Shown here one piece after another: positions 10,257-22,315 of a stretch of DNA of 64,000 nucleotides. The notes under the pieces are model-generated. The model did no database searches and had not been told where the DNA came from. It saw only the letters and a list, made by a program, of their open reading frames with translations. The stretch comes from Bdellovibrionota bacterium. Its GTDB lineage: Bacteria > Bdellovibrionota_C > UBA2361 > CALJRW01. The stretch covers positions 1-64,000 of the forward strand of contig JBGSMD010000020.1 in NCBI GenBank assembly GCA_041740355.1, written 5' to 3'. The translations under genes were made by a program, and so were the position numbers. The number at the start of each line of letters is the position of its first letter. The stretch's first letter is position 1.

Positions 10257-10362
10257 GCAACTAAGCAGTAAACCGAAAAAGACTAAGAAAAGATTAATTA
10301 GTTCGTAAAAATAATCTAAACTATCTTACGCTTAATAGAAATTCTCTTAAATAAGTCTGGAT

Positions 10363-10564
10363 TATACTCACCGGCTATTCATTTTTGATAAAAAATGAAT
10401 AGCAAGGAGAGCGAGCAAAATCCTGTCCCAGACAGGTTTTGCCGTAGAAAACAACACCTAACCCGCCGCAAATAAGTTGTGAGTATTGGCCTTGTCTTAT
10501 ACAGCGAAACTTGGCTTAAGCCAAGATTACGCTCGCCCTCCGCAAATTTCATATGCGGAGGGTT
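10363..10564 (-). repeat. Structured repeat family A, copy 1 (candidate ncRNA or MITE)
   Basis: Reverse complement aligns with 21876-22107; several hairpins with compensatory substitutions; overlaps the ampG stop codon. Confidence 0.85.
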
Positions 10565-11802
10565 ATAATTCTAATTAAAATTAGTCCTGGAATCCCAGCT
10601 AAAGTACAAATTGTAAAGAACCATGTCCAACCAACATCATTGGCTAAGAATCCACTAGTTCCCGAAAGTAAACTTAGTGGCACAGCCATTAAACTCGTCA
10701 TCAGAGCATATTGCGTTGCCGTGTAGGCGCGATTTGTAAGACTTGCCATATATGCTAAGAATGCGGCTGTTCCCATCCCGCCACTAGTATTTTCAAAACT
10801 AATTACGGCAGCAAAGAGTTGTAAATTATGTCCGTAAATACTTAGCAAAACAAAACCGCCAGTCGAAACCATTTGTAAGATTCCAAAATACCAAAGCGAT
10901 TTAGTAATCCCCCATCTAACTATTAAAGCACTACCCAGAAGCAATCCTAAAAACTGAGTAAAAAATCCAAAAGTTCCGTCGATTGAGGCAATTTCATCTT
11001 TTTGAAAACCAAGATCAATATAAAAAGGAGAAGTTAAAACACTGGCGTAACTATCTCCTAGTTTAAAAAACAGGATAAATAATAAAGTTAACACGGCACG
11101 TTTGGCACCGATCCGTAAAAAGAAATCTTGCAGGGGTAGAATGAAAGCTCCGGCAAAATTTGCTGGTCGTTGATCAATCTCCACCACTGGTTCTTTGGCA
11201 TGCCAAGTAGTAATCAAATTTAAGGCCATTAACCCCGCCATGGTTAAATATGCTGCCTTCCAAGAATAGTAAGTAGCTATGTAAAGTGGTACTACTCGGG
11301 CAATCCAAAGGGCAATCCGATAACCATAAACATAAAGTGATGAGCCAAAGGCTAACTCTTTATCAGTCAATGTTTCCCGTCGATATGCATCTACGGCAAT
11401 ATCCTGCGTGGCACTAAAAAAACAAATAAAGAAGGCAACAAAAGCAATTAGATTTAAATCTGTTGCCGGTTGTAAGAAACTTATGGCGGCAAGCGCTAAG
11501 ACCAACATCACTTGGCTTAAAATTAGCCAGCTAGTCCTTCGTCCTAAAATTGACAAACTAAAATGATCTAAATAAGGAGCCCAAAGGAATTTTAATGTGT
11601 AGGGAATTCCAGCCAAACTTATTAAACCAATACTTTCCAAATCTACACCAGATTCTCGAAGCCATGTTTTTAAAGTACTTTTTGTTAATAATAATGGAAG
11701 CCCTGAAGCAAGGCCCATCAAAGTTGCAATCAGTAAAGGTTGATTGGAAATAGTTGTCAGAAGAATTTTTTTGAAGCTTTTACTAGATTTTTGTTGGGGC
11801 AT
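10549..11802 (-). CDS. ampG: AmpG muropeptide MFS transporter
   Basis: GLASGLPLLL, PYTLKFLWAP, GRRTSW, SATQDIAVDAYR and ATQYAL motifs. Confidence 0.92.
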   Translation of the reverse strand: MPQQKSSKSFKKILLTTISNQPLLIATLMGLASGLPLLLTKSTLKTWLRESGVDLESIGLISLAGIPYTLKFLWAPYLDHFSLSILGRRTSWLILSQVMLVLALAAISFLQPATDLNLIAFVAFFICFFSATQDIAVDAYRRETLTDKELAFGSSLYVYGYRIALWIARVVPLYIATYYSWKAAYLTMAGLMALNLITTWHAKEPVVEIDQRPANFAGAFILPLQDFFLRIGAKRAVLTLLFILFFKLGDSYASVLTSPFYIDLGFQKDEIASIDGTFGFFTQFLGLLLGSALIVRWGITKSLWYFGILQMVSTGGFVLLSIYGHNLQLFAAVISFENTSGGMGTAAFLAYMASLTNRAYTATQYALMTSLMAVPLSLLSGTSGFLANDVGWTWFFTICTLAGIPGLILIRIITLRI

Positions 11803-19618: not shown

Positions 19619-19818
19619 GTAACCCTTTACATAGTCTGTAAAGTTTTAAAAGATTAAATCCCTTTCAAGGGGTCAATTTACGTAGTAAATTGGGGGTGGA
19701 GACATTAGCCGTTCACACTGTTGGACAAAATCGATCAGATTTTGACCAAGGAACAAATTAGTTTTTGCTCCTTAAAAGCTTTGACAACGTACTTTTGTAT
19801 TCCCCGTGAACGGATACA
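19619..19818 (+). repeat. Structured repeat family B, copy 1 (200 bp)
   Basis: Direct repeat of 22116-22315; internal hairpins and long-range ccgttcac/gtgaacgg pairing. Confidence 0.88.
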
Positions 19819-19869: not shown

Positions 19870-21876
19870 ATGAGTACTTTTTTCGAAAATCAATTAAATG
19901 CCAAGCGTCGCACTAAGCAACTGCTATTTCTTTATGTACTTGCGATTCTAGTAATTGTCCTAGGAATTTATCTGTTGTTTGCCTTCACCTTAGCATCCGG
20001 CGTGATAACTGGCGGGATGTCTCCACTGCCCTTTGAATCTAAACTTGGCGTTCTTTGGAATTCCGCACTATTTCTAAAAGTCTTCTTAGGAGTTTCAATT
20101 ATTATTGCGCTAGCTAGTGTTTTTAAATCCCTACAACTTGGTGGCAGTGGGGCTCGAGTAGCATCGATGCTAAATGGTCGCTTAATTAATCCTAACACAA
20201 CACTAGCTACAGAAAAGCAAATTTTAAATATCGTCGAAGAAATTGCCATTGCTTCCGGAATGAAGGTTCCACCAATTTATGTCATGGAAGAGGAAGCAAG
20301 TATTAATGCTTTTGCTGCCGGTACTAGACTAGACAATGCTGTGATTGGAGTTAGTCGTGGAGCACTTGAAACTCTCTCGCGGGATGAGTTGCAAGGTGTT
20401 GTTGCTCATGAATTTAGTCATATCCTAAATGGTGACATGCGCTTAAATCTTCGACTGATTGGTATTTTATTTGGCATTTTATTCATCGCCTTAACGGGAC
20501 GACTAATCGTGGAAGGAACGGCGCGATCATCTAACTCTTATCGTCGTAGATCTAATGGTAAATCGGACGGAGGATCCGTCATTATAATTGGAATTGGCCT
20601 ACTTGTAATTGGCTACACTGGTGTTTTTTTTGCTAAATTAATTAAAATGGCTGTATCGCGTCAGCGGGAATATTTAGCCGATGCCTCAGCAGTGCAGTAC
20701 ACTCGTAATCCTCTAGGTATTGCTGGAGCTTTAAAAAAAATTGGGGCCTTAGCTGATGGGTCAAAAATCAAGAATGCCCACGCAGAAGAAATTAGTCATA
20801 TGTTTTTTGCTAATGGATTAAAAAGTAGTTTCACTAATCTATTCGCGACTCATCCCCCATTAACTGAAAGAATTCAAAGATTAGATCGCAGTTTTGATGG
20901 TGATTTTCAGAGCGTGGATGTTAATACGACAATCCCTCGGCAAGCTCGGGACGAGGCTACCTCTCGACAAGCTCGAGGTCCAGAAGCTAGCGCTTCTGGA
21001 GGTCCACTTGATCCACTCCTCAAAAACCCAGCGTTAGAGTCTATCTTAAATAACCCCGCAGGAAATATTTTAGGGACAATTGGGACAATGGGATTTGCTA
21101 ATTTAGAAGCAGCCAGAAATTTAATTAATAATCTTCCACCGCAAATTCATCAAGCTGTACACGAGCCCTACCTTGCTCCGTTTGTAATCTACACTCTATT
21201 ACTAGATGCCAAGCCAGATATTCGTGGAAAACAATTACAAATTCTGGAACAAAATCTTCCCTCAAGTTCTTTTCAGGAATTTTCTAAATTACTAATTACC
21301 TCTAAAGAAGTGAATCAAAATGACTTTCTCTCGATTCTAGATTTAGCACTTCCAACGCTCAATATGCTCTCCGAAAGTCAGTTTAAGCAAATGCGGGATT
21401 TAGTAACTCACCTAGCTCACGCCGATGCAAATTTAGATCTACATGAATATACCTTGCAAATTATTCTATTAAAACATTATGATCTAAAATTTAATCCTGA
21501 AAAATTTAAGGGTCAAAAAAACAAACCACTGGGCAATTTAGTACAATTTGCTTCCGACTTATTTCTTTGCTTAGCAGTCTTAGGTAATAAGGATAATTTA
21601 GCCGTCGCGGAAGAGGCCTATCGGGCAGGAATTAAACATTGTGCTATCCCCGCTGAATTTCAACATAACTTTCAGGAATTACCGAAGGTAGGTTTTCATC
21701 TCTTGGATCAAGCCATTAAAGAACTAAGCAATTCGGAATATAATGTGCGGGAAGTTTTACTAAGAGCTTGTATTTCATGCATCTCAATCGACAAAAAAAT
21801 TTCGACTCATGAGTTCACCTTAATTCGAGCAATAGCTGATAGCTTTAATTGTCCGGTGCCATATTTAGGTAGTTAA
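19870..21876 (+). CDS. M48 (HtpX-like) membrane zinc protease with large C-terminal domain
   Basis: INAFAAG, VAHEFSH (HExxH), SRQREYLADA and THPPLTERI motifs; TM helices. Confidence 0.9.
   Translation: MSTFFENQLNAKRRTKQLLFLYVLAILVIVLGIYLLFAFTLASGVITGGMSPLPFESKLGVLWNSALFLKVFLGVSIIIALASVFKSLQLGGSGARVASMLNGRLINPNTTLATEKQILNIVEEIAIASGMKVPPIYVMEEEASINAFAAGTRLDNAVIGVSRGALETLSRDELQGVVAHEFSHILNGDMRLNLRLIGILFGILFIALTGRLIVEGTARSSNSYRRRSNGKSDGGSVIIIGIGLLVIGYTGVFFAKLIKMAVSRQREYLADASAVQYTRNPLGIAGALKKIGALADGSKIKNAHAEEISHMFFANGLKSSFTNLFATHPPLTERIQRLDRSFDGDFQSVDVNTTIPRQARDEATSRQARGPEASASGGPLDPLLKNPALESILNNPAGNILGTIGTMGFANLEAARNLINNLPPQIHQAVHEPYLAPFVIYTLLLDAKPDIRGKQLQILEQNLPSSSFQEFSKLLITSKEVNQNDFLSILDLALPTLNMLSESQFKQMRDLVTHLAHADANLDLHEYTLQIILLKHYDLKFNPEKFKGQKNKPLGNLVQFASDLFLCLAVLGNKDNLAVAEEAYRAGIKHCAIPAEFQHNFQELPKVGFHLLDQAIKELSNSEYNVREVLLRACISCISIDKKISTHEFTLIRAIADSFNCPVPYLGS
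20933..21000. repeat. Three tandem palindromes inside the protease coding region
   Basis: tccc-tcggcaagctc-ggga, acctc-tcgacaagctc-gaggt and tccagaagc-tagc-gcttctgga; encode PRQARD...SRQARGPEASASG. Confidence 0.75.
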
Positions 21877-22107
21877 ACCCTTCGCAAATGAAATTTGCGA
21901 AGGGCGAGTGTAATCTTGGCGTTAGCCAAGTTACGCCGTAGAAGATAAAACAAATACTCACCGCCTATCTGCGTAGGGTTTAGTTGGCGTTTTCTACGGC
22001 AAAACCTGTCTGTGACAGGATTTTGCTCCCCGGGACTCGTTACACTCGCTCCCCCTTCAGGACAACTTTCTTTTCATTTTTCTCAAAAATGAAAAGCGCT
22101 GAGTATA
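21876..22107 (+). repeat. Structured repeat family A, copy 2 (candidate ncRNA or MITE)
   Basis: Homologous to the reverse complement of 10363-10564; begins at the protease stop codon. Confidence 0.85.
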
Positions 22108-22115
22108 AATTAATC

Positions 22116-22315
22116 GTAACCCTTCACTTATCTGTCAAAGTTTTAAAGGCACAAATCCCCTTAAAGGGGTCAATTTACGAAGTAAATTGGGGGTGGAGAC
22201 ACTATCCGTTCACACTGCTGGACAAAATCGTTCAGATTTTGACCAAGAAACAAATTAGTATTTTGCTCTTATACAGCCTTTTTAAAGGACTTTAACTTTC
22301 CCGTGAACGGATACA
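22116..22315 (+). repeat. Structured repeat family B, copy 2 (200 bp)
   Basis: Direct repeat of 19619-19818 with the same hairpins. Confidence 0.88.

Follow-up and report, generated by a model that had tools for sequence, protein, structure and literature searches.

Two strongly folding copies of one dispersed repeat lie in a 64,000-nucleotide stretch of DNA (hereafter the window) from a Bdellovibrionota bacterium (GCA_041740355.1), each at the 3' end of a gene and in the sense orientation of that gene, and the question raised by this locus is what kind of element would take such a form. A reading made from the letters alone had proposed that the repeat, here called family A, is structured under selection and is thus an unrecognised structured RNA or an RNA- or single-stranded-DNA-folded mobile unit rather than neutral repeat DNA. 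Our analysis leads to a different identification. Family A is very probably a MITE that belongs to an IS630-family lineage whose long ends bear hairpins, and in it the left end has been joined to the right.

Both copies were checked in the sequence and found where that reading had placed them, at 10363-10564 on the minus strand and 21876-22107 on the plus strand, and the features that we assign to them are collected in Table 1. The first of these ranges takes in, besides the copy 1 body, the right TA and a single base of the left one, and copy 1 is short of one A relative to the consensus 5' AACCC. Copy 2 carries an additional 31-nt module 5' of H5 and has TA flanks at 21874-21875 and 22106-22107. 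The mean column identity of the two in alignment is 83%. An nhmmer profile built from them gave 72 matches in the studied genome (3.27 Mb, a 74-contig draft, 97% complete), 27 of which span the whole model, while the rest are fragments, relatives or opposite-strand matches of each copy (model positions ~25-156). The 27 full copies measure 196-263 nt, are dispersed through the genome, and are distinguished from one another by three optional inserts of ~30 nt, one in each of the loops of H2 and H4 and one 5' of H5. Four full copies were found in the congener (G001) and none in 39 other genomes of the order, where 37 were blank and two gave weak partial matches (E ~3e-4 to 6e-4); identity to one consensus is 85-96.5% for all copies of both species. 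Family A is therefore what is expected of a MITE in being small, dispersed and multicopy, with no transposase gene of its own. The sole open reading frame longer than 60 aa that overlaps a copy, one of 103 aa at window positions 21984-22295 (+), lies wholly within copy 2 and the adjoining family B repeat, and is most likely not a gene. When public collections were searched with a pattern of H4 plus its flanks, three loci in genome contigs were returned (one is a copy of the congener, one matches H4 alone and one fails the family A model), and a pattern of H1 gave 0 matches in public metagenome contigs and 0 in viral contigs.

Table 1. Features assigned to the two family A copies in the window and to their immediate surroundings.
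Feature	Positions	Strand	Basis
Cut-off remnant of the original ampG tail (NPDLFKRISIKRKIV, then stop), still readable 3' of the element	10314..10361	-	Alignment with the congener; coordinates hand-counted
Copy 1 right flanking TA, putative target-site duplication	10363..10364	-	Flank logo after GAGTA: T 24/25, A 21/25
Family A MITE (probable), copy 1, body	10365..10563	-	nhmmer 227 bits; orthologous congener site without element
H5, the long hairpin at the tip of the right inverted end, with CTCACC/GGTGAG as its closing pairs	10366..10412	-	Fold, stem comparison
H4, A-tract, cctgtc/gacagg hairpin and T-tract, terminator-like	10414..10443	-	Fold; covaries across 32 superfamily ends
H3, inner left end paired with inner right end (CCGTAGAAGAC / GTTTTCTACGG)	10444..10502	-	Fold; opposite-strand self-match of copies
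H2 (cttggc/gccaag) with extension, left-end counterpart of H4	10503..10533	-	Fold; same stem is H4 in the relatives' insertion sequence ends
H1, tip hairpin of the left inverted end, short counterpart of H5	10536..10562	-	Fold; homology with the insertion sequence left end
AmpG-family MFS gene	10549..11802	-	TIGR00901, 451.8 bits
Copy 1 left flanking TA, putative target-site duplication	10564..10565	-	Flank logo before AACCC: T 20/25, A 21/25
Family A MITE (probable), copy 2, body	21876..22105	+	nhmmer 269 bits; congener without element
Family B, a different ~200-nt dispersed repeat directly after copy 2, outside family A	22115..22315	+	Comparison with the congener, blast

The mobility of family A is evident from a comparison of eight of its sites with the congener. 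Five of these (copy 1, copy 2, C5:57247, C39:3183 and C46:30907) are empty in the congener, with the flanks adjacent, and the other three are uninformative, as at least one flank could not be located in the congener. At the copy 2 site the congener's flanks lie 23 bp apart, and the studied genome also holds the second ~200-nt repeat at this place; at C5:57247 the blast alignments place the flanks 2 nt apart. In the reverse direction, one of the four congener copies is common to both species, one occupies a site that is empty in the studied genome (giving one exact junction), and two, on congener contigs C27 and C54, are in spacers too diverged to align, such that exact junctions are not obtainable there. 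TA is frequent on both flanks of the copies (Table 1) and is present at the junction in all four of the empty sites read by hand, a set that is separate from the copy 2 junction. The junction at C46:30907 fits a TA duplication with one substitution, and the other three depart by 1-4 nt from a clean TA duplication, within A/T runs. These junctions are consistent with a target-site duplication of TA by family A but do not prove it. Compared with the empty congener site, the copy at C5:57247-57447 is preceded on its 5' side by 12 additional nt that resemble AACCTTGCTAAA and partly repeat the 5' tip, and is followed on its 3' side by an additional AC-TA; an earlier insertion may have left this footprint.

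The lineage to which family A belongs is revealed by its relatives. A sister family, A', has a shorter model (~146 nt) with 20 full copies, and is bounded by tips, TAAACCC / GGGTTTA, that are cleanly inverted repeats of each other. The core common to both families, TTTTCTACGGCAAAA-hairpin-ATTTTGCTCGC-hairpin-GGGTTTA, was used to scan metagenome contigs and yielded one contig, L068, of 1453 bp. This contig encodes an IS630-family transposase of 344 aa, which scores 207.6 bits with NF033545 (cut-off 100) and 114.8 bits with DDE_3. The open reading frame is flanked by inverted ends of ~105 bp with TA outside each end, and in alignments these ends prove homologous to the 3' halves of families A and A'. 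Fragments of a transposase of the same type, with 48-63% identity, occur in 4 of 91 genomes of the order, all four in another family, and the same end module adjoins the transposase fragments in 8 of 8 loci from those four genomes. The left end of the L068 element also corresponds to the 5' half of family A, comprising the tip, H1 (a short H5), CGAGC, H2 (the counterpart of H4) and GCCGTAGAAGAC, and this correspondence identifies the 5' half of family A as a left end, and H3 and the closing stem as pairings between one end and the other. The inner AATACTCACCGC of family A is likewise an inner copy of the terminal motif, as the insertion sequence itself has TAAACCC / GGGTTTA ~100 bp inward. Thus the claim that the repeat is a mobile unit and not neutral repeat DNA is borne out, both by the empty sites in the congener and by the IS630-type ends.

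No cognate transposase was found in the studied genome, in which the sole IS630-like gene is 27-28% identical to the L068 transposase (27% over 241 residues), nor in the congener at E<=1e-20. That one IS630-family gene, at C8:19300-20267, encodes 322 aa (DDE_3, 112.5 bits) and runs off the contig end; its 3' flank, read by eye, has no family A-like end, and its 5' end is off the contig. Among 25 occurrences of the tip in the studied genome, no 5' tip was found to be paired with its inverse at a spacing of 250-5000 bp, as would mark an autonomous copy, and copies of the cognate insertion sequence may be missing from the 74-contig draft assembly. The same genome contains no TnpB-type gene (PF07282) and one broken 148-aa match to the IS4/IS5-type DDE domain (PF01609).

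The architecture of the ends accounts for the fold that first drew attention to this element. Each end has the same order, beginning with the terminal motif (TA followed by AACCC...), then the tip hairpin (H5, or H1 in the left end) and a conserved linker (GCGAGC / GCTCGC), and continuing further in with a second hairpin flanked by A/T runs (H4, or H2 on the left), a conserved block (GCCGTAGAAGAC / GTCTTCTACGGC) and the inner copy of the terminal motif. The outermost tips of family A, TAAACCCTCCGC / GCGGTGAGTATA, form an imperfect terminal inverted repeat that matches at 9 of 12 positions when read by eye, and the right tip is GAGTA where the insertion sequence has GGGTT. With nhmmer, model positions ~25-156 are also matched by the reverse strand of every copy, which makes each family A copy one long inverted repeat. 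Both copies are predicted to be much more stably folded than shuffled sequences, with -87.3 kcal/mol for the sense strand of copy 1 (z -8.2 against shuffles) and -86.7 kcal/mol for copy 2 (z -7.0), and the copy 1 antisense strand comes close to this (-76.7 kcal/mol, z -8.3). What looks like a five-hairpin fold is four end-internal hairpins plus the pairing between two ends, and it arises because two inverted ends of ~100 bp, with two local hairpins each, are joined. The same architecture bears on a pseudoknot that had been proposed between an atactca segment (10486-10480), which is the inner copy of the terminal motif within H3, and the 3'-terminal tgagtat (10370-10364). The complementarity holds, with 92.1% of cells paired in 28 copies, but covariation lends the helix no support, its 2 double changes being a number attained in 53 of 500 shuffles. 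The same 3' end can also pair in a nested manner, with the CTCACC that immediately precedes H5 on the 5' side. What had been read as a pseudoknot reflects the complementarity of the inner-left terminal motif to the outer right end.

A mobile unit rich in hairpins might also be a single-stranded-DNA element, either REP/BIME-like or derived from IS200/IS605, that is moved by Y1 (HUH) transposase-like genes of the host genome. There are hairpins at both tips of family A, GTAG/CTAC motifs are present in H3, and the studied genome has five genes with a Y1_Tnp domain (324-341 aa, 31.6-36.3 bits; 34.7 bits in Pfam). We nevertheless regard this explanation as scarcely credible, as no family A match lies <=2.5 kb from any of the five Y1 genes, which have their own unrelated ends, and as family A has TA on both flanks and ends that are demonstrably those of an IS630-family DDE element. 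Orientation relative to GC skew shows no bias (11 to 14 for family A, 8 to 11 for A'), and together with the mixed gene context described below this argues against a strand-specific single-stranded-DNA mechanism. Neither strand-specific insertion nor association with Y1 genes, the marks of IS200/IS605- or REP/RAYT-type elements, was found, and against the model for REP-associated tyrosine transposases the Y1_Tnp gene scored 59 bits, under the cut-off of 80. More generally, nothing was found that points to an RNA or single-stranded-DNA intermediate, and orientation is mixed with respect both to genes and to GC skew. The Y1_Tnp genes themselves (C16:249549, C51:14303, C51:22273, C26:27811 and C63:206275) show HIH and YxxxNP motifs by eye; three copies are 89-93% identical over units of ~1.2 kb, the ends of which look like an inverted repeat (TTGAGCCAC / GTTGGCTCAAG), and a ~220-bp 3' segment is tandemly duplicated at C51.

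Insertion of the probable MITE has had visible consequences for host genes. Copy 1 does supply the end of ampG, as had been noticed, contributing its four final codons, which encode T L R I, together with the stop codon TGA (10563-10549). The ampG orthologue of the congener continues for 16 more codons (NPDLFK...), and a remnant of this tail is still readable after the element (Table 1), from which it follows that insertion took place inside the coding region and that the tail of ampG was replaced. For the M48 peptidase gene upstream of copy 2, the stop codon at 21874-21876 is composed of TA and the first A of the element. The association with gene 3' ends in the sense orientation holds for these two copies but not in general, as the upstream gene has the same orientation in 12 of the 27 copies; in a crude table of open reading frames the contexts are tandem sense in 8, tandem antisense in 4, divergent in 10, convergent in 4 and unresolved in 1. 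The new C-terminal tails and stop codons at ampG and the M48 peptidase gene, and possibly termination, are by-products of insertion. A single family A copy occupies a shared orthologous site (C12:61715-61914 in the studied genome, C24:39642-39840 in the congener). The gene whose ATG lies 28 nt downstream of it encodes 245 aa and has no Pfam match. Between the species this copy is 90% identical, whereas the adjacent spacer reaches 74-76% and the third codon positions of the gene that follows 50%. Simple neutral decay by vertical descent leaves this identity unexplained; recombination, selection on the copy, or a recent expansion in both species out of a shared source could each account for it.

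Whether the structure is selected is a separate matter from what the element is. The compensatory changes on which the sequence-only reading drew are real: in an alignment of 28 copies, columns 8/26 of H1 are CG in 22 copies and UA in 2, and columns 275/300 of H5 are UA in 25 and AU in 2, while the stems cttggc/gccaag and cctgtc/gacagg are identical in copies 1 and 2 and their loops differ. Covariation within family A, however, is at chance level: 6 pairs carry double changes where shuffled alignments average 5.4, and 234 of 500 shuffles attain that number. The nested fold leaves 92.0% of cells paired against 91.7% in shuffles, a value reached by 6 of 500. Stem deviations from the consensus are mainly disruptive, 172 against 79 that keep the pair. 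The wobbles said to favour the sense strand amount to three consensus G-U pairs, yet among the deviations G-T (56) is not commoner than A-C (78); other mismatches account for 94 cells and alternative Watson-Crick pairs for 23. A different result is obtained across the superfamily. In H4, compared over 32 ends (9 from insertion sequences, 6 from A and 17 from A'), 93.2% of cells are paired against 78.7% in shuffles and 8 of 12 pairs show double changes; four of five measures were reached by 0 of 500 shuffles and the fifth, further pair types, by 1 of 500, though these ends fall in about three lineages and hence represent few independent events. In H5, a hairpin is predicted in 30 of the 30 sequences that could be cut out (of 32), although two of these folds, at -2.4 and -10.0 kcal/mol, are weak, and the stem varies greatly from one sequence to another. 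Within A', where the pattern caught 11 copies and skipped 6 of 17, each of H5 stem positions 4-10 is occupied by 2-4 types of Watson-Crick pair and is paired in 8-10 of the 11 copies. Even the H5 stems of the two ends of one insertion sequence differ. Divergence from the consensus is 6.2% in stems and 15.1% in loops. Singleton substitutions are about equal (2.28% in stems, 2.86% in loops; Fisher p 0.26) and shared variants are about three-fold fewer in stems (3.9% against 12.2%), which together suggest constraint on lineages that are still transposing, followed by neutral decay after insertion. The claim that structure is under selection is thus supported for H4 and H5 across the superfamily, and not for the inserted copies of family A, in which covariation is at chance and singletons fall equally on stems and loops.

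Two explanations of these patterns compete with constraint on a transposing element. Quasi-palindrome correction, in which intrastrand template switching copies one arm of an inverted repeat onto the other, could generate compensatory stem changes without any selection, and it would suit both the A' H5 stems, which are very unlike one another yet almost perfectly complementary, and the different H5 stems borne by the two ends of one insertion sequence. The uncorrected mismatches that pile up in single family A copies (the 172 disruptive cells) and the roughly three-fold rarity of shared variants in stems, as is predicted by selection on propagating lineages, lead us to consider it improbable. 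Highly improbable, in our assessment, is that the copies are genes or cis-elements of a functional structured RNA kept by the host (an sRNA, an mRNA 3'-end stabiliser or a terminator) for which mobility is secondary. Such an RNA would be in keeping with the strong fold of both copies, with a sense strand ~10 kcal/mol more stable than the antisense and bearing the three consensus G-U pairs, with the terminator-like H4, and with the high identity of the shared copy 28 nt upstream of an ATG relative to its spacer and to third codon positions; MITEs can also yield sRNAs, for example the Coxiella QMITE (PMC5896051). It is at odds with chance-level covariation within the family, private substitutions that are equally frequent in stems and loops, the excess of disruptive over pair-keeping deviations, the mixed gene context (8/4/10/4) and an antisense strand that folds almost as well. 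H4 also appears terminator-like on both strands by eye, with a terminator scan flagging the sense strand in both copies. No sequence in the whole window matches an Rfam family at gathering score, and when copy 1 is compared with Rfam 15 under an E-value threshold instead, the one match is a chance-level score of 18.4 bits to a miRNA precursor whose cut-off is 52.2. The three sequencing runs listed as carrying the stretch are all DNA metagenome runs of one study, with no RNA run among them. The element matches the ends of an IS630-family insertion sequence, an outcome that the sequence-only reading had itself named as refuting its proposal.

Within the IS630/Tc1/mariner world, there is a structural parallel with elements of the IR/DR type, such as Tc3 and Sleeping Beauty, which have long inverted ends with the terminal motif at both the outer and the inner edge. 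The lineage of family A appears to share this organisation, judging by the recurrence of TAAACCC / GGGTTTA ~100 bp inward; local covarying hairpins inside the ends are, to our knowledge, no feature of Tc3/Sleeping Beauty-type elements. Among small bacterial repeats, MITEs with TA termini, stem-loop folds and in-frame gene fusions are well described (PMC2229807; PMC5896051), and the features of family A fit the description of bacterial MITEs given in PMC2229807. The repeat unit of pneumococcus (RUP), thought to be mobilised by IS630-Spn1, is like family A a small non-coding dispersed element with TA insertion, IS630-like ends and presumed mobilisation in trans (PMC2229807). Family A differs from it in being about twice as long, at 200-262 nt, and modular, with three optional ~30-nt inserts, in having ~100-bp ends with two covarying hairpins each, and in that no cognate insertion sequence was found in the same genome. 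Correia, ERIC and RPE-type MITEs resemble family A in being A+T-rich with TA termini and stem-loops, and in being intergenic but also fused to open reading frames, to which they give new C-terminal codons (PMC2229807); there is no sequence relationship, and for family A the parent transposon family is directly identified. QMITE1 and QMITE2 of Coxiella burnetii are likewise present in many copies, ~50 per genome, and share with family A overlap with gene ends, conservation among strains and hairpins, whereas their direct repeats are of 2-3 nt or 7-11 nt and of variable sequence, in contrast to the TA flanks of family A (PMC5896051). As described in the same source, QMITE2 carries a REP targeted by IS1111, and QMITE sRNAs are documented, with none documented for family A. 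A literature search for MITEs in Bdellovibrio found nothing related, and one for hairpin-bearing IS630 ends found nothing relevant among the matches listed.

Family A is not alone in its host, as the genus is rich in small dispersed repeats. Family B, which adjoins copy 2, has a second copy at window positions 19619-19818, upstream of the same M48 peptidase gene, and gave 12 blast matches in the studied genome and occurs in ~10 or more places in the congener. Just downstream of another family A copy, at C63:82187-85419 (locus positions ~1750-2150), there are three short repeat families of ~108, ~240 and ~47 nt, which together occur in >30 places in the congener, the ~108-nt family alone in about 20.

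In the mechanism that we propose for the probable MITE, the left end of an IS630-family element became joined almost directly to the right end, and the resulting unit would move by cut-and-paste into TA, with duplication of the TA, using a DDE transposase supplied in trans. The hairpins would be constrained in those lineages that keep transposing and not in each inserted copy, and H4 may serve as a two-way terminator that insulates the parent insertion sequence. We acknowledge that DDE transposition has no known need for local hairpins, yet H4 and H5 covary, and this counts against the MITE account, as do the failure to find a cognate transposase in either genome, the imperfect inversion of the tips, the 1-4 nt departures from a clean TA duplication and the high identity of the shared copy. 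A more speculative proposal, which we consider rather unlikely, starts from the ~105-bp ends of this IS630 lineage, in which H4 and H5 stems have repeatedly been replaced with pairing kept, even between the two ends of one insertion sequence: a Tc1/mariner-type DDE transposon may depend on folded ends, either as a cruciform or hairpin read by the transposase or as a two-way terminator that shields it from outside transcription, and, separately, the copy at the shared site may be a co-opted regulatory element.

In summary, what was a candidate for a new structured RNA is replaced by a documented MITE for which the parent transposon family can be named. The case carries a caution, in that compensatory changes between two copies of a repeat are no evidence of RNA function, and it leaves a modest puzzle in the compensatory changes that preserve hairpins within the ends of a DDE transposon. 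For the bacterium itself, the finding means that real genes are truncated and re-tailed by such an element, as in AmpG, which loses 16 codons and gains 4.
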